NCBI GenBank assembly: GCA_963674755.2
Contig: CAXXVS010000001.1
Coordinates: 384,001 to 448,000 of the forward strand
Source: Desulfobacterales bacterium
GTDB lineage: Bacteria > Desulfobacterota > Desulfobacteria > Desulfobacterales > UBA5852
Direction of reading: 5' to 3'
DNA: 64,000 bases
Both the position numbers and the translations under genes were made by a program. The notes under the pieces are model-generated. The model worked only from the letters and a program-made list of their open reading frames with translations, was not told the origin of the DNA and made no database searches. Below, piece after piece: positions 21,580-30,634 of the stretch (the first letter of the stretch is position 1; each line of letters opens with the position of its first letter).

Positions 21580-24348
21580 ATGACCGATCAGAATCAGTTG
21601 GTGATGAACGGCAATACGTTCACGTTTGAACCGGGTGAAACCATTCTCGAGGTGGCCCGGCGCCACAGCATTGACATCCCGACCCTGTGTCATTTGAAGG
21701 GCACTACCCCGACCGGCGCCTGCCGGGTCTGCGTGGTGGAGGTGGCAGGGGCCCGGACCCTCCTGCCGGCCTGTGCCACCCCGGCCGGCAAAAATATGGT
21801 CATCCAGACGGAGTCGCCCAAAGTGGTGGAGGCGCGCCGCACGATTATCAAACTACTCCTGGCCTCGGGCAACCACAATTGTGCGGCCCGCGGGTCGGAC
21901 GAGGGCGATTGGACCGCTTTCCAGCTGGCCGTGGAAGAAGGCGATCGGAGCGACCAGCTCTGCCCGGTATGGGGAGACTGCCGGTTGCAGGATCTGGCCT
22001 ACCGCTACCAGGTGACCGGCGAAGGACTCCCGGGGACGGTGATTCCTTATCCCATCGAAGATGTGAATCCCTTTATCGTGAGGGATTTTTCACGCTGCAT
22101 CCTCTGCGGGCGCTGTGTGCAGGCCTGCAACGAGGTCCAGGTCAACAAAGCGATCAGTTTCGGATTCCGGGGGTCGGAGAGCAAGATCGTGGCCGCCGGC
22201 GACAAGCCCCTCAAGGATTCCGATTGCGTTTTCTGCGGGGAGTGCGTTCAGGCCTGTCCGGTGGGGGCCCTGGTGGAAAAAAAGGTCCGCTACGAGGTGC
22301 GGCCCTGGGAAACCCGCAAGGTGCGCACCACCTGCACCTACTGCGGTGTCGGCTGCCAGATCCATCTGCATGTGCGCGACAACCATGTGGTGAAAGTAAC
22401 CGGTGTGGAGGACGTGGCACCCAACTACGGCAGCCTGTGCGTCAAAGGGCGCTTCGGATACCCGTTTATCGATGCGCCTGACCGGCTGACCAAGCCCCTG
22501 ATCAGGAAAGACGGCGAATTCAAAGAGGCTTCCTGGGACGAGGCCCTGGATTTCGTGGCCGGCAAATTGGCGGCCATCAAGGACAGCCACGGACCGGAAA
22601 GCATCGGCCTGCTGACCTCGGCCCGCATTACGAACGAAGAAAATTATGTGGCTCAGAAGTTTGCCCGGGCGGTGTTGCAAACCAACAATGTGGACCATTG
22701 CGCCCGTCTCTGACATAGCTCCACCGTGGCCGGTCTGGCCGCAGCCTTCGGCAGTGGGGCAATGACCAACACCATCGCCTGTGTCGAGGAAGCCGATGTC
22801 ATTCTGATCACCGGTTCCAACACCACCGAGAATCACCCGGTGATATCGGCCGGGGTCAAGCGGGCCGTATCGTCCGGACGGGCCCGCCTGATCGTGGTGG
22901 ATCCACGCCGCATCAAGGTTGCCGAGTTCGCCGATTGCTATCTGCGGCCCAATCTCGGTACGGATGTGGCCTGGATCAACGGTATGCTCAACGTCATCAT
23001 TAGCGAGAATCTGCAGGATGCGGCCTTTGTCGCGGAACGCACCGAAGCCTTCGAAGAAATGAAGGCCCTGGTGGCGAAGTATACCCCGGACTACGTGGAA
23101 AGCATTACCGGCATTCCGGCCGCGCAGCTGATCGAAGCCGCCCGGCTGTACGCCAAGGCCAAGGTGGGCAACATCATCTATTGTATGGGAATTACCCAGC
23201 ACACCTGCGGCACGGACAACGTCAAATCCCTGGCCAATCTGGCCATGCTGTGCGGCAACCTCGGCATGCGGGGCGGCGGCGTGAACCCTCTGCGGGGCCA
23301 GAACAATGTGCAGGGGGCCTGCGACATGGGCGGCCTTCCCAATGTGTTTACGGCCTACCAGCCGGTGACCAATGAGGATACCAGCCAGAAAATGGCCGCC
23401 GCCTGGGGGGTCGCGCACTTGTCCACCAGCGTCGGCATGAAAGCCACCGACATGATTCCGGCGGCCCACGACGGCCGCCTGAAAGCCCTCTATGTCATCG
23501 GGGAAAATCCGCTGGTGTCCGATCCGGACCTGAATCATGCCGAAGACAGTCTGGCGCATCTCGATTTGCTGGTGGTGCAGGATCTTTTCCTGACCGAAAC
23601 CGCCCGCAAGGCCGACGTGGTGCTGCCCAGCCGGTGTTTCGCTGAAAAGGACGGCACCTTCTCCAACACCGAACGGCGGGTGCAGCGGGTGCGCAAGGCG
23701 GTGGATGCTCCGGGGGAAGCCTGGGACGACTGGAAAATTGTGACGGCCATCGCCGAGCGGATGGGCTATGCCATGACGTATGCCGACAGCGAAGCCATTT
23801 TCGAGGAAATCCGCCAGGTGACGCCCAGCTATGCGGGCATTACTTATGACCGTATTGACAAGGAGGGGCTGCACTGGCCCTGCCTGAACGAAGAACATCC
23901 CGGCACGCCGGTCCTTCACAGCCTGCAGTTCACCCGCGGCAAGGGCCTGTTCCATGCCATCGAATGGCAGCCACCGGTGGAAGTGCCCGACCAGGAGTAC
24001 CCGCTCTATCTGACCACCGGGCGCATCCTTTACCACTACCATACGGGTACCATGACCATGCGTTCGGAAGATCTCATGGAGAGGGCGCCGGAGAGTTTTG
24101 TTGAAATGACGCCCCAGGATGCCGCCGCCCATGGTCTGGCCGATGGCGGCCGGGTCAGCATCGCCTCCCGACGGGGAGCCATCGAAGCCCGGGTGAAGGT
24201 TTCCCGCAAAGCCGTGGCCGGTACGGTGTTCATCCCCTTTCACTTCGCCCAGGGAGCGGCCAATAAATTGACCAACGCCGCCCTGGATCCTGTGTCGGGG
24301 ATTCCCGAATACAAAGTGTGTGCCGTTAAATTGACCCCGGCTCCCTGA
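21580..24348 (+). CDS. Selenocysteine-containing formate dehydrogenase alpha subunit (2Fe-2S/4Fe-4S + Mo/W-bisPGD); Sec at TGA 22711-22713
   Basis: ORFs 21580..22713 and 22726..24348 are in the same frame; DHCARL-U-HSSTVAGL active-site context; RGQNNVQG motif. Confidence 0.95.
22714..22752 (+). promoter_or_regulatory. Putative bacterial SECIS element
   Basis: Hairpin GTGGCC-GGTCT-GGCCGC starting ~12 nt after the in-frame UGA. Confidence 0.7.
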
Positions 24349-24372: not shown

Positions 24373-24410
24373 AAAAAGCCCCCGGCTTGAATTCAAGCCG
24401 GGGGCTTTTT
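24373..24410. terminator. Bidirectional rho-independent terminator
   Basis: Perfect 38-bp palindrome AAAAAGCCCCCGGCTTGAATTCAAGCCGGGGGCTTTTT between convergent genes. Confidence 0.9.
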
Positions 24411-24487: not shown

Positions 24488-25162
24488 CTATTTTTCTTTG
24501 TAACGGGCCGCGTATTCGTCCTGCACGATTATGCGGCGGGTCTGGTTTTGCCACTGCATGGCCGGTTTGATTTTTTTGATGTCGTTCAGACGGTTTTGTG
24601 CTTTCAGGCGGTTGTAGATATCCTGCCATGCGCAGGGGATCTCGTTGCTGACCTCACAGTTGCCGTTATTCGTGCCGCCGCAGGGGCCGTTGAACAGGCC
24701 CTTGGCACAGCGGGTGATCGGGCAGATGCCGCCGGTATAGCCCAGCACGCATTCACCGCAAGCCCGGCAGCGCTCTTCGTAGACGCCGATATTACGATCG
24801 ATGCCGATGGCGATGGTGTTGACCGCCGGAAAGACGGGCTTGTCAGGATAGCGCTCCGCCAGCAGTTGTACGCCGGCGCCGCAGGCCATGGACATCAAAC
24901 CGTCGTAGCGGGCGACGCGCTGGTCCAAATCGGTCAGGAAAGCCTCGTTGCACTGCCGCTCGACGGTAAATCCGTCCACACGGGTCTGGCGATTATCGTT
25001 TTTCAGAGCCAGATTCAGTTTAGCGTTCAGCAGGTTGACTTCCTTCTGGCCGCCGGCCAGGCAGACGGATACGCAGCCCCCGCAACCGACATTCAGCACG
25101 CGGGTATAATTTTCAATCGCCTGCTTGATTTCTTCCAGGGGTTTTCTTTTTGCTTTTACCAC
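24488..25162 (-). CDS. metV: Methylene-THF reductase small (Zn/Fe-S) subunit
   Basis: GCGGCVSVC, ERQC, ACGAG, CRACGECVL...CPITRCAKGLFNGPCGG...CAW; GTG start with GGAGG RBS. Confidence 0.88.
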   Translation of the reverse strand: MVKAKRKPLEEIKQAIENYTRVLNVGCGGCVSVCLAGGQKEVNLLNAKLNLALKNDNRQTRVDGFTVERQCNEAFLTDLDQRVARYDGLMSMACGAGVQLLAERYPDKPVFPAVNTIAIGIDRNIGVYEERCRACGECVLGYTGGICPITRCAKGLFNGPCGGTNNGNCEVSNEIPCAWQDIYNRLKAQNRLNDIKKIKPAMQWQNQTRRIIVQDEYAARYKEK

Positions 25163-25199
25163 TTGCGACCTCCAAGGTGGATGAATTACGGATGCGTGT

Positions 25200-25613
25200 T
25201 TAGTTTCCCGCCCGGTGGCAGTCACCGCACATCTCGGGCCCGGACGGCTGGCCGGATTTGCGGACCGCGATATGGCACCCTATGCATTGGCGGTGAAACG
25301 CGTCCTGCAGATCAGGGTCCGTCTGGTCGTTGTGACAATTTGCGCACTGAATGGCCGGATTGCCTTCTTCCAGGGTATCCTCGTCCAGCACGTTCACCCC
25401 ATCCTGGTAATCGTGGTGGCAATCCAGGCACTCATAAAGTCCCATGTGCACTTCATGAGGGAAAATCACGGGTGACCGTTGCGCTTCCCCGGGGTTCCCC
25501 ATGCTCAGCTCGATTTCCTCCTCCTGGGCTAAGGCGACGGTCACCGGAATCAGGCCGATGATGGCGATAATGGCGGCTGCCGCCCATATCAGGGATCGCT
25601 TGTTCCACGTCAT
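25200..25613 (-). CDS. Acidic tetraheme class III cytochrome c (TmcA/cytochrome c3-like)
   Basis: Signal peptide; FPHEVH; four CxxCH motifs (CLDCH, CANCH, CIGCH, CGDCH). Confidence 0.9.
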   Translation of the reverse strand: MTWNKRSLIWAAAAIIAIIGLIPVTVALAQEEEIELSMGNPGEAQRSPVIFPHEVHMGLYECLDCHHDYQDGVNVLDEDTLEEGNPAIQCANCHNDQTDPDLQDAFHRQCIGCHIAVRKSGQPSGPEMCGDCHRAGN

Positions 25614-25694
25614 TGCTGTTGCCGTACCTTTCTTTGCGGGCTTACCGTATGCTGAAGGCGCTTTCAATCGACTTGCCATTCGCAGGGGGCTCTA

Positions 25695-26090
25695 TTAAGC
25701 CGGTTGCTCAAGTTCGCTCCACTGGAAATAGACCTCCTGGGAGCGGCAGATGTCGCGCGCCAGGGCGATCATCTCGGGTATGTCGATGCCCAGCGGACAG
25801 TAGCAGCGTGTGCACAGCACGCATCGCCGCCACACAATTTCTTTGATTTCTTCGAGACCCGCCCGATCCACCGCGCCTTTTTTCTTGTAGAGCCTCCCGA
25901 TGGAATTGATAAACTTGTGGGAGGGCATGTAGCGGGGGTCCTTGTCGTTGACATGGTATAAAAAGCAGCTGTCCGCACAGAGGCTGCAGTGGGCGCACAC
26001 CCGCAGTGCGGTTTTCATTTTGTCCTTGTGCTGATCCAGCATGCGCCGGATTTCGTTCTGATCAACGGGAGCTTGTTCGTTTGCGCTCAT
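25695..26090 (-). CDS. Small 2x[4Fe-4S] protein resembling the TmcB/HmcF N-terminus, without a CCG domain
   Basis: CAHCSLCADSC and CVLCTRCYCPLGID motifs; 131 aa. Confidence 0.8.
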   Translation of the reverse strand: MSANEQAPVDQNEIRRMLDQHKDKMKTALRVCAHCSLCADSCFLYHVNDKDPRYMPSHKFINSIGRLYKKKGAVDRAGLEEIKEIVWRRCVLCTRCYCPLGIDIPEMIALARDICRSQEVYFQWSELEQPA

Positions 26091-26115
26091 TGCTGTCTCC
26101 ACGGGTCGGCGGTGC

Positions 26116-26799
26116 CTATCGCCAAATGCGGCTTCCGCCGGCACCGAGGGTGTTCTCGTGTACCAGCACGAACCGGTTGATGAAAAAATAGGGCATATGC
26201 ACCAGCTTGGTGAATGGTATGGCCATCAGCATGATTTCGCCGGCCAGCATGTGCAGCACGATGACCGTGTCGTAGTCGAACAATTGATGGTAGGCCAGAA
26301 ACCCCGTCACAAACGGTGCGGTCGCTATGAGCAGCACCAGATAATCGTAGGGTGTCGAAATGGCGCGCACGCGGTCCAGGAAAATGCGGCGCAGGAGAAA
26401 GAAAATGCCGCCGGCGATCACCACGACGGTGAAGCCGTCGCCCAGCACTTCCGGCAAGCTGGGCAGGCTGGCATGCCAGGCCACGTCCAAGAGAACATTA
26501 TGTCCCAGAACGAAAAAGGGGGTCAAAACCAGGAACAGGTGGAAGATGGTGGTAACTGCCGTCATGATCGGGTTGACACCGACCACGCTCAGCCGCACCT
26601 GCTGCCACCATGTTAACACGGGTTCGGCCGGGGTCTCGTCTGGCTCTTTGGGCGGTTTGCCGAACGGGATCCGCAGGCGGAAAGGCTCTTTCGGCCGGCT
26701 TAAACGGTAAAAGCGGTAGATTTGATAAGCCGTGCCGAAGATGAAAACCAGAAAGGCGACCCACACCAATGGTCCCCTGATAAAATCGTACATGGACAT
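26116..26799 (-). CDS. NarI-like heme-b membrane subunit (TmcC/HmcE-like)
   Basis: YDFIRGPLVWVAF start, about five TM helices, conserved His (FH, GHN, YH, LH), IPFTKLVH. Confidence 0.85.
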   Translation of the reverse strand: MSMYDFIRGPLVWVAFLVFIFGTAYQIYRFYRLSRPKEPFRLRIPFGKPPKEPDETPAEPVLTWWQQVRLSVVGVNPIMTAVTTIFHLFLVLTPFFVLGHNVLLDVAWHASLPSLPEVLGDGFTVVVIAGGIFFLLRRIFLDRVRAISTPYDYLVLLIATAPFVTGFLAYHQLFDYDTVIVLHMLAGEIMLMAIPFTKLVHMPYFFINRFVLVHENTLGAGGSRIWR

Positions 26800-26881
26800 C
26801 TCCCGAATCGTTCAGCCCTTATGGCCGGGCGAAAAGGGCGCGCATGGCAAGACAGCCCGCTGCGATGCGGCGCCCCGATGG

Positions 26882-27802
26882 TTAGACTTGCGGTCGGGGG
26901 AGGACGCCGGCGCGCTCGGCGATTTCCGGAACCCGGTGCTCCCACTCGATGGCCATGAGATGCACGCCGGCAACGCCTTTCATTTCCTTGAATTCTTCAA
27001 TCTGTTCGCAGGCCATTTTGATGCCTTCATCGGCCTGTTTTTTCTTGTCCACTCCCTGGAGGCGCTTGATGATGTCATCGGGCACATCCATGCCCGGCAC
27101 CTTGCTCTTCATGTAGCGCGCCATACCGAGGCTCTTCATGGGGGTGACGCCGGCCAGGATATAAACTTTTTCGGTGAGCCCCATGTCGTTGGCCTGACGG
27201 ACCCATTCCCGCATCTTCTCCATGTTGTAGATGCATTGGGTCTGAACGAAATCCGCCCCGGCTTCCACTTTTTTGGCCAGGCGGTGAACACGCCACTCGA
27301 AAGGTTCCGCGAAAGGATTGGCCGCCGCCCCGATAAACATCTGGGGCGGGCCGTCGATTTTGGCGCCGCTCAGGAAAAGGCCCTCATCGCGCATGCGTTT
27401 GGTCATGCCGATCAATTGGATGGAGTCGATGTCATAGACGCCTTTGGCGTTGGGATGATCGCCGAATTGCTGATGATCGCCGGAAAGGCAGAGCATGTTG
27501 CGAATCCCGTGCGCATAAGCGCCCAGGATATCGGCCTGCATGGCCAAGCGGTTCCGGTCGCGGCAGACCATCTGGTAGTTCGGCTCGAGCCCCTCCTGAA
27601 TGGCGACCAGGGCGGCGGCCCAGCTAGACATGCGCACCATCGCGGTCTGGTTGTCGGTGATATTCACCGAGTCCACCATCCCTTTCAGTGGGGCGGCCTT
27701 TTCACGAACCGCTTCGACATTCGAACCTCGAGGTGGTCCCAATTCCCCGGTAAATGCGAAGTGCCCTGCGTTGAGAATTTTGGCAAGTCTGCTCTCACTC
27801 AT
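26882..27802 (-). CDS. metF: Methylenetetrahydrofolate reductase (MetV-associated type)
   Basis: ELGPPRG, NITDN, CRDRNRLAMQ, LSGDH, KKVEAGADFVQTQ. Confidence 0.93.
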   Translation of the reverse strand: MSESRLAKILNAGHFAFTGELGPPRGSNVEAVREKAAPLKGMVDSVNITDNQTAMVRMSSWAAALVAIQEGLEPNYQMVCRDRNRLAMQADILGAYAHGIRNMLCLSGDHQQFGDHPNAKGVYDIDSIQLIGMTKRMRDEGLFLSGAKIDGPPQMFIGAAANPFAEPFEWRVHRLAKKVEAGADFVQTQCIYNMEKMREWVRQANDMGLTEKVYILAGVTPMKSLGMARYMKSKVPGMDVPDDIIKRLQGVDKKKQADEGIKMACEQIEEFKEMKGVAGVHLMAIEWEHRVPEIAERAGVLPRPQV

Positions 27803-27895: not shown

Positions 27896-27913
27896 TTTTA
27901 AAATATGTCACAA
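27896..27913 (-). promoter_or_regulatory. Possible Rex-like operator between two TTGACA hexamers upstream of metF
   Basis: TTGTGACATATTTTAAAA versus TTGTGAAnnnnTTCACAA (11 of 14 consensus positions). Confidence 0.3.
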
Positions 27914-28317
27914 GATCCGCCGTAGTGTCAAGACGATGGGGCGATCTGTAATAAGAATATCTGTCCGGAATAAATGAAGCAATATGAACAAGATCCATGT
28001 ATTGAATTGCATTCAATTATTAGGGCGTGACCGGTCCTGCGGGTCGGCGGCAGAGATGTCCCGGCGGTGCTTTTGGGGGCACATGCCGGTATTCCGCCAG
28101 AGCCTTTGCTTCCGGGCGTAATTCTGACCGATAGACCCGTCATGGGGTTTGCGTTCTGATCTATTCGGAAGATGGCGAGAGCGCCGGAAGTCTTGGGGGC
28201 AACTTTTAATGCGGTTTAATCCGCCAAAGGCGGACAAGGGGTTAATATGTCTTCGCTTGCGGCGTTGGATGGCCTTTATCGATACGCAGCTGCTTTGCGA
28301 CGGGGCAGTTCATTGGG

Positions 28318-28614
28318 TTATGCCCCGATGAGTTTGACCAGCACACGTTTTTTCCGCCGCCCGTCGAACTCGCCGTAGAAGATCCGCTCCCAGGTTCCGA
28401 AATCCAAGCGGCCCTCGGTGATGGCCACGACGACCTCGCGTCCCATGATCTGGCGCTTCATGTGCGCGTCGGCATTGTCTTCGCCGACATTGTGCCGGTA
28501 TTGCTCCACCGGTGTATGGGGGGCCAGCTTCTCCAGCCAGACATCATAGTCGTGATGCAGACCGGATTCATCATCGTTGATAAACACCGAGGCCGTAATG
28601 TGCATGGCGTTGAC
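28318..28614 (-). pseudogene. yjbQ: 3' part of the host yjbQ (UPF0047) gene, split by the integrated element
   Basis: [18 protein letters not shown]...NADAHMKR...GEFDGRR; continues in frame from the 5' part at 39512..39636. Confidence 0.93.
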
Positions 28615-30202
28615 TAAGGCTATCATAAACGGCCTGAGAAAACTCAACCGACAGGCCCATTTCTTCGGCAAGCTGAACGGGATCTAAGCCCCCTTGCCGC
28701 AATAGTCCCTCCAAGCCGCCGAGCACGCCACGGATCGAATAGGCAACCTGGCCATCCTCGGTTTTCGACACATACACGCCCAGGCGTCTCCCCTCGGCAT
28801 CGTGGCCATCAAAAAAGGTTTGGACCAGCTTGCGTTTTTCTTCAAAGGTCATTTTGGCAATACGGCCCGGCCGGTTGAAAATCGATTCAAGCATCCGTTT
28901 GGCCAGGGTAGCCTGCTTTTTGATTTGCGCCTTTGTCGGGACGCCCTGGGTCTGAGTATCAATAGCCTCAACAGCGCTTTTTAGGGATTCAATCTGTTTG
29001 CGGATGGTGGTCATCCGCTCGGTGGCTTCCTCATCGGAGAGGATGCCCTTGCCTATGGCTTTGACAATGTTTTCCTTCTCGGCATTGGCAGTCTTCAATT
29101 CCTTTTGGAGGGTTTGCCGCTGGGCCAGCAGGCTATCAACCTTGGCGGTATCGGGAATGGCGCGGGCCAGGGCCGCCTCCAAACCGGTGGAATCTCCCGC
29201 GAGGGCAAACAGCTTAAAGAATACAGCCGTTTCAAGCTCATCCGCACGCACCCAGAAGCTCTCATCGCACTTCGCCTTACGCCCACGCGGGTGCCGGTAA
29301 TAGCTGGTGGTGGCGTGGTTAGTTTGGCCAAACATGGCATTGCCGCAGTCGGCGCAGAAAATCACACGGGATAAAAGGTATTTGTTTTTGTACTGGCCGT
29401 GATAGTAGGTCTTGTTAGCGGCGGCTCGCTTTTTGATCTTCTCGATGGTTTCCTCGGGCAGAAGCCGTGGAATTTTGATTATGACGGTTTCATCAACGGC
29501 AACCCGTTTAGCCCGATAGCGCACTTCCCAATTGTCGCCGCACCGTCTGGTCAGCGTTTTCCACAAGCTGACGTGATTCATCCCAAGGGTGGCGGCCAGC
29601 TTGGGGATTTGATCCCCTTGGAGGTAGCGCTCGGCGGCCCAGACTATTTTCCCTCGCTTTTCCTCATCAATACCCCAGGTCTCCGTCTCTTTATTGAAGG
29701 TGCGTCCGTAGGGAAGCTTGCCGCTGGTGGGCACGCCCCGTTTGGCGCGGGCGATGCGGTTGTTGATGGATTTGCGGGTTTGTTCCAGCGCCACAAATTC
29801 ATTGATTTCCGTCGCCATCCCAAGAAACAGGGTGTCCGCCGGTTTATAAAGATCGTACTCGCTCTGGCCGGCGAAAAACCGGACGCCGGCCTTGCGCAGG
29901 ATTTCCAAGCCCTGTTTGGAATTTCCGTTGTCACGGCTCCAGCGGGAGGCGTCGCACACAATCACGGCGTCAAAGCGGTCCCGGTCGGCATCCTTTAATA
30001 GCTGATCAAGCTTTTTACGTTCAAAGGTGGCGGTGGCATGTTCCTGGCCGCTGTAGCGCCAGGGGTCGTCAATAAGGTTACCGCCCAGGGCTTTGACCGC
30101 AGCGGTGATTTCTTCCTTTTGGGTCCGTAGCGATTCGCCCCTTTGGGCTTGGCCTTCGGTGCTCACCCTAACCAAGGGGGCGAACCGTAGTGATTTTTGC
30201 AT
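28571..30202 (-). CDS. Large serine recombinase (integrase)
   Basis: RVST catalytic Ser, DASRWSR, KLPYG recombinase domain, CADC zinc ribbon, coiled coil. Confidence 0.95.
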
Positions 30203-30217
30203 AGTGGCCTCCCCTGG

Positions 30218-30634
30218 TCATTCTCCGATAATTTTCACGAGCACCCGTTTTCTGCGCCGACCATCAAACTCACCATAGAAAATCCGTTCCCAGGTGCCGA
30301 AGTCCAAACGGCCGTCCGTAATGGCCACCACGACTTCACGCCCCATGATTTGCCGCTTCATGTGGGCGTCGGCATTATCCTCGCCAACATTATGCCGGTA
30401 TTGGGAAACCGGTTCGTGGGGGGCCAGCTTTTCCAGCCATACGTCGTAGTCGTGATGCAGCCCGGATTCGTCATCGTTGATGAAAACCGAGGCCGTGATG
30501 TGCATCGCGTTACAAAGTACGAGCCCCTCCTTAACGCCGCTTTCATCGATGCATTTCTGAACGTCGGGGGTTATGTTGATAAAGGCCCGCCGGGTGGGCA
30601 CGTTGAACCAAAGCTCTTTGCGGTAGCTTTTCAT
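30218..30634 (-). CDS. yjbQ: Element-borne intact YjbQ (secondary thiamine-phosphate synthase family, UPF0047)
   Basis: 138 aa, full length, highly similar in protein to the reconstituted host gene; 15 bp upstream of the integrase. Confidence 0.93.

Follow-up and report, generated by a model that had tools for sequence, protein, structure and literature searches.

Does a set of five genes from a Desulfobacterales bacterium encode a methylene-tetrahydrofolate (methylene-THF) reductase that is wired to the membrane? The genes run on the minus strand from the start of metF at 27802 to the stop of metV at 24488 in a 64,000-nucleotide stretch of DNA (the window, by which we mean the whole stretch that was analyzed). 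Between these two genes lie a membrane cytochrome b similar to TmcC and HmcE, a 131-residue iron-sulfur (Fe-S) protein, and a tetrahaem cytochrome c3. The reversed Wood-Ljungdahl pathway is the route for acetyl-CoA oxidation in complete-oxidizing sulfate reducers, and the accessible text of PMC6895022 describes the oxidation of methyl-THF at -200 mV as its energetic barrier. A membrane link for methylene-THF reductase (MTHFR) is an old open question: according to the accessible text of PMC8578096, attempts to find a membrane-bound MTHFR failed and genomes gave no evidence for one, and the accessible text of PMC13391211 (from 2026) still treats a membrane carrier as a hypothesis. (Statements about other papers, here and below, also refer to their accessible portions.)

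We found that the five genes are real, conserved, and under selection, probably as one operon, and that the genomic evidence makes them a strong candidate for an MTHFR coupled to the membrane. In the reading that we favor, and hold with moderate confidence, MetV and MetF (together, MetVF) replace the CCG domain of a conduit of the Tmc or Hmc type and exchange electrons with periplasmic cytochromes. The operon would then name the parts of a direct wire, and the Tmc/Hmc scaffold would have been reused outside of sulfur metabolism. The parts are known but their combination is apparently undescribed. A first-pass annotation, made from the sequence alone, had not recognized the arrangement as a characterized complex, and we too found no description of the gene set in the literature covered by full-text searching (most subscription papers lie outside it, and proteome supplements may list the proteins). 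This includes the accessible portions of PMC10553843, PMC13391211, PMC11887813, PMC5109826, PMC2702500, PMC4046663, PMC10608574, PMC8578096, PMC10861901, PMC13416013, PMC6895022, and bioRxiv 10.64898/2026.08.18.745454. The supplement of PMC11887813 that was available, a single text file, does not mention metF, MetV, or TmcC; the proteome tables may list them. Because the module occurs in records of named species, the question of the membrane link is amenable to ordinary biochemistry.

The genes and their conservation

The first-pass annotation described a tight, co-oriented run of metF, a NarI/TmcC-like gene, a dicluster Fe-S gene, a tetrahaem cytochrome c gene, and metV. Indeed, all five are intact open reading frames, with gaps of 82, 25, 81, and 37 nucleotides (nt) in the direction from metF to metV. 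MetF matches PF02219 (E = 1e-38) and solved MTHFRs (best E = 5e-11), and MetV matches the MTHFR C-terminal/MetV family (PF12225, E = 8e-37). A structural model of MetV matched generic alpha/beta folds only (best Z = 9.9), and by sequence we found no solved structural relative for MetV or for the Fe-S protein. Three genes separate metF from metV in the window; they are adjacent in some permutations elsewhere.

The cytochrome b belongs to Nitrate_red_gam (PF02665) and scores 186.6 bits against TmcC (cut-off 240) and 166 bits against HmcE (cut-off 275). Its model has five long helices (predicted local distance difference test, pLDDT, of 85), and by fold it is closest to NarI chains of E. coli (E = 4e-4). 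Four histidines (H87, H100, H183, and H201) are invariant in 62 of 62 orthologue rows and should be enough for two b haems. H87, H183, and H201 align with H56, H187, and H205 of NarI, which we take to be haem ligands; the alignment is poor around the distal-haem quinone-site region, and the structural model is apo and ligand-free. The Fe-S protein has Fer4_8/Fer4_17 domains and covers the HmcF and TmcB models at their N-terminal part only. Its cluster motifs are CxxCxxCxxxC and CxxCxxCxCP (the second one is shortened), and the eight cysteines are invariant in all 62 rows. Because it matches only residues 35-146 of the 447-residue TmcB from its own genome (34% identity), the CCG part of TmcB is gone, as the first-pass annotation had noticed, and the CCG Pfam domain has no match in any of the five genes. 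(We found no plasmid match for this protein. Two database proteins, P0121 and P0129, fuse the cytochrome b with the Fe-S domain and could be read-through errors.) The cytochrome c3 (Cytochrom_CIII, PF02085) carries four CxxCH motifs and a hydrophobic stretch near its N-terminus (residues 8-26), has a mature pI of about 4.5, and is predicted to be exported. Its best NCBIfam match is TmcA (82.6 bits, below the cut-off of 114).

Could the short Fe-S gene instead be a truncated tmcB pseudogene, which metF and metV flank by chance in a decayed tmc operon? True, the match of the protein to TmcB is confined to the N-terminal quarter, and none of the operon's genes reaches the Tmc cut-offs. But the gene is under purifying selection: in comparisons with five relatives, its ratio of nonsynonymous to synonymous substitution rates (dN/dS) was 0.05-0.14 (5/5 comparisons). 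The other genes had ratios of 0.02-0.04 (metF), 0.04-0.09 (metV), 0.11-0.16 (cytochrome b), and 0.13-0.24 (c3). The end of its reading frame lies at most 29 residues from the aligned end in all 80 relatives. Short homologues are numerous (484 in a search restricted to 72-230 amino acids; the top 120 span 107-158), and the genome has a separate and intact tmcDCBA (near 1.245 Mb of contig C1) whose four genes all exceed their cut-offs. Because of these selection and conservation results, the pseudogene reading, which the first-pass annotation had itself raised, is refuted; we leave it almost no probability.

The five genes stay together while their order is permuted, which answers the first-pass annotation's concern that the linkage might not be conserved. 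We analyzed the best 80 of 357 confirmed stretches from a scan of GTDB. The cytochrome b gene was adjacent to the Fe-S gene in all 80 of these loci, metV lay within 2.7 kb in 76, a c3-like gene was present in 72, and a close metF in 55; 79 had metV or metF, and 49 had all five genes. The main orders are c3-metV-cytochrome b-FeS-metF and metF-cytochrome b-FeS-c3-metV, and cytochrome b-FeS-metV-metF-hmcABC also occurs. Because the same order or a permutation of it recurs in most related loci, the arrangement is beyond chance. Similarly, among 41 related genomes we found 18 loci with the short gene, and these had metF (18), the cytochrome b (18), metV (16), and c3 (15) within 1.5 kb; the two full-length tmcB loci in the same set had neither metV nor metF. 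In an even sample of the phylum (301 genomes), 24 had the short gene, and four further matches were full-length TmcB. Within 1.5 kb, the 23 loci other than the window's own had metV or metF (23), metV (22), the cytochrome b (22), and c3 (17), as compared to metV or metF at none of the four full-length tmcB loci. Among distant members from metagenomes (best 80 of 531), which are mostly on short contigs, metV or metF was found in 62 of 80; where 2 kb of sequence flanked the gene on each side, all 13 loci had one or the other. These genome sets partly overlap, and kin are not independent.

By record titles, the module occurs in Syntrophaceae, Myxococcota, and Acidobacteriota besides Desulfobacterales. 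It is present in records of Desulfoluna butyratoxydans, D. spongiiphila, D. limicola, and Desulfocicer vacuolatum, and in metagenome-assembled genomes (MAGs) labelled Desulforapulum autotrophicum and Desulfosudis oleivorans. In one complete genome, the module includes metV, and a metF of 85% identity is found at another place, where metV has no match within 1.5 kb. An apparent fusion of MetV to the cytochrome b (L061) is probably a one-base assembly error: a second copy in the same record separates the genes, and the metF of L061 is frameshifted too.

Wood-Ljungdahl genes and the MetV lineage

The module follows the Wood-Ljungdahl pathway and not sulfate reduction. Acetyl-CoA synthase (ACS) was found in 21 of the 23 module genomes and in 204 of 301 genomes of the background, a modest enrichment. 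Only 6 of the 23 had a match to dsrA, as expected if a DsrC-directed CCG domain had been swapped out. In 15 of the 23 genomes, which are 90-100% complete, we found no metV other than the module's; 13 of these 15 have ACS. In 10 of the 23, acsB is on the same contig as the module and no more than about 20 kb away. We annotated four loci of a Hmc-type variant. These read acsB, acsC, acsE, cytochrome b, Fe-S, metV, metF, hmcA, hmcB, with the module directly after acsE in all four; a hmcC-like gene is next in three, and the fourth is cut by the end of its contig. The hmcA after the module was above its cut-off in both relatives tested. At a fifth locus, the c3 form of the module stands behind cdh and nuoEFG-like genes. 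Given both c3-type and Hmc-type loci, MetVF occupies the place of the lost CCG domain on the Tmc-type and the Hmc-type scaffold alike. (Genes like hmcA and/or hmcB and hmcC follow the module at L087, L090, L092, L152, L153, L155, L156, L217, L229, and L231; four of these loci are from genomes in which no dsrA was found.)

The window's genome (6.7 Mb, 97% complete; its closest named relatives are Desulfobacterales/Desulfobacteraceae MAGs) encodes ACS, Fhs, and DsrA. It also encodes QrcABCD and a Tat-exported [NiFe] hydrogenase, which are possible periplasmic partners of the module; a periplasmic formate dehydrogenase of the FdnG type had no match in this genome. Despite QrcABCD, menD, menB, and mqnC had no match over the cut-off in this genome, and mqnA/D had none. 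For menB and mqnC, the same is true of all three congeneric genomes (G000, which is the window's genome, G001, and G005). If this genus has a quinone, its synthesis may follow another pathway; a literature search on quinone synthesis in Desulfobacteraceae found nothing.

We built a quick maximum-likelihood tree of 74 MetV sequences, with few outgroups. (The rows came from 32 hand-picked loci of the 80 GTDB loci and from further loci; rows with fewer than 190 aligned residues or with stops were dropped.) All 57 module rows fall on one side of a branch with support of 91 (Shimodaira-Hasegawa-like approximate likelihood ratio test, SH-aLRT), and eight diagnostic positions set them apart from the other MetV rows. 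Beside them are 13 sister rows, from metVF pairs that are mostly linked to hdrA and a hdrD-like gene, and four type IV-like rows lie outside of both groups. All 74 rows share 13 cysteines. The sister lineage is carried by a soluble hdrA/hdrD-like cluster in 14 genomes of the order. In the set of 41 genomes, 18 had the short Fe-S gene, 14 had the sister HdrA-linked MetVF, and none had both, which looked like mutual exclusion, but G339 and G340 break this rule. Because these two genomes carry both, the two wirings are not strict alternatives: one MetVF lineage has two wirings, a soluble Hdr or a membrane cytochrome, and as a rule, with exceptions, one stands in for the other.

The soluble clusters (L106-L117, L119, and L120) take two forms: hdrA-mvhD-hdrD-like-metV-metF, and one in which metV-metF come first and two hdrA-like genes and a hdrD-like gene come after. 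In several of these loci, the hdrD-like frame is broken by a stop, which is possibly selenocysteine. A divergent second MetF paralogue (34-37% identity) follows the module in L039, L040, L067, L081, L096, and L097, and a divergent MetF paralogue also precedes a HdrA-linked metVF cluster in the window's genome (near 1425779 of contig C2).

Proposed mechanism and its alternatives

From the genes, their cofactor ligands, and their conservation, linkage, and distribution, we infer the following contacts, electron flow, direction, and energetics. MetF would turn over methylene- and methyl-THF at its flavin, and the clusters of MetV, in the place of the disulfide-reducing CCG domain of TmcB/HmcF, would hand single electrons to the 131-residue adaptor with its two [4Fe-4S] clusters. 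The adaptor would sit on the cytoplasmic face of the di-haem cytochrome b, whose two b haems would conduct electrons through the membrane to the tetrahaem c3 in the periplasm (or to the 16-haem HmcA in some relatives). The c3, in turn, may trade electrons with the pool of periplasmic cytochromes, with a hydrogenase or formate dehydrogenase, or with Qrc. Such a wire would be a reversible redox loop. During methyl-THF oxidation at -200 mV, electrons would move outward with the aid of the membrane potential; because the membrane potential pulls them outward, acceptors that are too negative for a soluble enzyme would be within reach. During methylene-THF reduction with periplasmic H2 or formate, electrons would move inward and energy would be conserved.

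The potential of H2 is -414 mV, and a typical membrane potential is about 150 mV. The accessible text of PMC6895022 gives -200 mV for methylene-/methyl-THF, -432 mV for formate, and -320 mV for NADH, and that of PMC13391211 gives -74 mV for menaquinone. From standard potentials, we computed yields of about -41 kJ/mol for the reduction of methylene-THF by H2 and -45 kJ/mol for its reduction by formate; under such standard conditions, this would be enough to move two charges against about 150 mV. Run in reverse, methyl-THF could reduce carriers near -350 mV. In the window's genome, which is that of a sulfate reducer, everyday use is likely oxidative, with electrons returning via Qrc or the canonical Tmc. 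The first-pass annotation had suggested that the coupling would suit oxidative use of the Wood-Ljungdahl pathway. But the module also lies in acs operons of genomes in which no dsrA was found, and either direction would be possible there.

The central claim of the first-pass annotation, that MetVF replaces the CCG module, has strong genomic support (the conserved but permuted linkage, purifying selection, the grouping of MetV, and the independence from dsrA), from which we infer the physical coupling. Several observations weigh against a membrane-coupled enzyme. The background frequency of ACS is already 68%, and related genomes are not independent. The window's module is far from acsB and fhs, and the main reductase of its genome, which carries two further HdrA-linked metVF clusters, may be a different one. 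G339 and G340 combine a metF-less module with a separate HdrA-linked metVF of the sister type. A close metF is absent from 25 of the best 80 of 357 loci (some of these are at contig ends), and single loci have a short Fe-S gene without a module neighbour (L234), no cytochrome b match within 1.5 kb (L146), or no metV nearby (L074). Fusions of MetV or MetF to the module were not found in a search limited to 8000 candidates, which is a weak negative; likewise, none of the longer fused forms searched joined the Fe-S protein to MetV (also a weak negative). In the accessible text of PMC8578096, the MTHFRs of acetogens are mostly in the soluble fraction. A complex prediction for the cytochrome b, Fe-S protein, and MetV, with MetV scored, gave 0.21 and 0.12 (mark 0.32; controls not folded) and weighs neither way.

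If the complex is in the membrane, its cytochrome b might exchange electrons with menaquinone, with c3 as an accessory, which would make it a methyl-THF:quinone oxidoreductase. The NarI fold invites this idea, as NarI, DsrM, and EMO (the electron transfer flavoprotein, or ETF, :menaquinone oxidoreductase) react with menaquinone. According to the accessible text of bioRxiv 10.64898/2026.08.18.745454, EMO runs a reverse redox loop in which its NarI-family domains work with (methyl)menaquinone, and with the potentials quoted in PMC13391211, electron transfer from methyl-THF to menaquinone would be downhill by 126 mV. Futalosine-pathway genes were present in all four dsrA-less module genomes tested. 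The cytochromes speak on both sides: 8 of the best 80 of 357 loci have no c-type cytochrome match, but 72 keep a c3-like or HmcA gene. The window's genome, with no match over the cut-off to menD, menB, or mqnC and none to mqnA/D, argues against a quinone partner. We favor the periplasmic cytochrome route and consider the quinone route unlikely.

Two further readings differ in the role that they give to MetV and MetF. Perhaps the genes are merely co-regulated, so that a soluble type II MetVF works beside a separate mini-Tmc conduit, in the same pathway, via ferredoxin or another soluble carrier. Type II MetVF do use reduced ferredoxin in vitro (PMC8760232), but that paper itself argues, in its accessible text, that ferredoxin is not the physiological donor. 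The lack of fusions in the weak search just described and the 13 cysteines that are identical in module-linked and other MetV rows would fit a soluble enzyme, yet the module's MetV rows form one group with eight diagnostic positions. Furthermore, a conduit without a catalytic domain of its own would have no cytoplasmic end, and the conduit genes interleave with metF and metV in several orders. We rate co-regulation alone as lower still than the quinone route. Alternatively, the fixed unit might be cytochrome b-FeS-c3-MetV, with MetV as a general electron hub that serves non-MetF partners too and metF as an optional passenger. In the best 80 of 357 loci, metV is adjacent in 76 and a close metF is found in only 55; G339 and G340 have a metF-less module and separate complete metVF pairs; and the best MetF matches in G341 are only 61-63% identical. 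But of the operon's genes metF shows the strongest conservation, the metF-less modules that we annotated had no other recurrent enzyme gene next to them, and G283 has a lone close metF elsewhere. A role for MetV as a general hub seems improbable, the more so of these two.

Likely operon boundaries, neighbouring genes, and known systems

The five genes lie between a promoter-like site and a terminator, which suggests a single operon (Table 1). Because a consensus scan found three sites in 4.2 kb and 1.8 would be expected by chance, the promoter candidate is weak taken alone. The terminator hairpin, 77 nt past metV, is strong (-34.7 kcal/mol, z = -6.7, with none of 200 shuffles as good). The likely starts at 26090 (Fe-S), 25613 (c3), and 25162 (metV) were chosen by purine-rich upstream motifs and the lengths of orthologues. 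In one metatranscriptome (0.15 share), where contigs are short and shallow, near-identical sequence covered only metF and its upstream region, and none of the pieces listed spanned a gene junction.

Table 1. Features of the operon, with positions in the window
Feature	Position	Strand	Details
Candidate sigma-70-like promoter	27902..27931	-	TTGACA, 18 nt, CATATT, extended TG; ~100 nt upstream of metF; consensus scan 10/12
metF	26882..27802	-	306 aa; flavin-binding catalytic subunit of methylene-THF reductase; PF02219
TmcC/HmcE-like (NarI-family) membrane cytochrome b	26116..26799	-	227 aa
Two-cluster [4Fe-4S] protein, proposed adaptor	25695..26090	-	131 aa; homologue of the TmcB/HmcF N-terminal domain
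Acidic tetrahaem cytochrome c3, TmcA-like, predicted to be exported	25200..25613	-	137 aa; PF02085; alternative upstream start 25679
metV, iron-sulfur/zinc partner subunit of MetF	24488..25162	-	224 aa; GTG start; PF12225
Intrinsic terminator hairpin	24373..24410	-	17-pair stem; T/A runs on both sides; common to the convergent formate dehydrogenase genes

Downstream, a convergent gene for the alpha subunit of a cytoplasmic formate dehydrogenase (21580-24348, plus strand) has one in-frame TGA (22711-22713) after a CAR-L motif, consistent with a selenocysteine codon; the downstream hairpin was no better than shuffles (z = -1.3). Upstream (28318-30634, minus strand), a gene for a 543-residue protein, which resembles a large serine recombinase, is flanked on one side by a full UPF0047/YjbQ-like gene and on the other by a second, partial copy of the 3' part of that gene (83% identity over 296 nt). 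This suggests that an element has integrated in the UPF0047/YjbQ-like gene, just upstream of the metF promoter. In the window's relatives the cassette is mostly on its own, in many cases close to genes for sensor kinases. Operons of the order c3-metV-cytochrome b-FeS-metF are often followed by two PAS/hybrid sensor kinase genes (L058:8588-11565, L055, L043, and L121), which may regulate them.

Among known systems, TmcABCD, the complex of type II cytochrome c3 in Desulfovibrio-type sulfate reducers, is alike in the architecture of its periplasm-to-cytoplasm wire: a NarI-family di-haem subunit (in the module, with H87, H100, H183, and H201, and a TmcC score of 186.6, under 240), a two-cluster Fe-S domain, and a probable counterpart of the acidic tetrahaem c3 (four CxxCH motifs and a low pI, but a TmcA score of 82.6, under 114). 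In contrast to TmcABCD, the module has metV and metF in its operon and no CCG domain (the two cubane clusters of TmcB are present in the 131-residue protein). None of the five genes is a tmcD, which is found instead in the canonical operon. Furthermore, the genes for the cytochrome b, the Fe-S protein, and c3 all score under the NCBIfam Tmc cut-offs, the module also occurs in genomes without dsrA, and the canonical tmcDCBA of the window's genome is a separate operon. The cytochrome b scores against HmcE as well, and the Fe-S protein against the N-terminus of HmcF, and hmcA and hmcB/hmcC-like genes follow the module in some relatives. In the window, however, the periplasmic part is one tetrahaem c3; the 16-haem HmcA, HmcB, and HmcC are absent from this operon and present in the module variant of other genomes. 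TmcB and HmcF carry one CCG motif each (PMC10861901, accessible text), whereas the module lacks the CCG domain of HmcF and has metVF instead.

On the cytoplasmic side, the module shares its MetF and MetV core, all 13 MetV cysteines, and its Wood-Ljungdahl context with MTHFRs of types II-IV. The accessible text of PMC8760232 lists four MTHFR types, among them MetVF alone, MetVF-RnfC2 (Acetobacterium woodii), and MetVF-HdrCBA-MvhD (Moorella thermoacetica), none of which has cytochrome b or c partners. The partner genes of metV and metF in the module encode a cytochrome b that is integral to the membrane and a cytochrome c with an export signal. No RnfC-like gene (as in type III) lies between the promoter and the terminator, and hdrCBA and mvhD (as in type IV) are not in the operon; the two HdrA-linked clusters are elsewhere in the genome. 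EMO/EtfD, HdrDE, and DsrMK differ in that they keep non-cubane CCG domains and end at quinone or phenazine, while the module lacks the CCG domain and encodes a periplasmic c3. We tentatively suggest, as a possibility short of our expectation, a fifth type of MTHFR: a self-contained, electrogenic transmembrane enzyme (MetF-MetV-FeS-cytochrome b with c3 or HmcA), using no quinone or NAD, in sulfate reducers and in syntroph-like lineages without dsrA. During CO2 fixation or acetogenesis, it would conserve energy as a redox loop fed by periplasmic H2 or formate; during acetate oxidation, the loop would run in reverse, driven by the membrane potential. Judging from its domains, the module would work like Tmc and Hmc on the membrane side and like the MetVF reductases on the cytoplasmic side, and it belongs to neither as they are defined.

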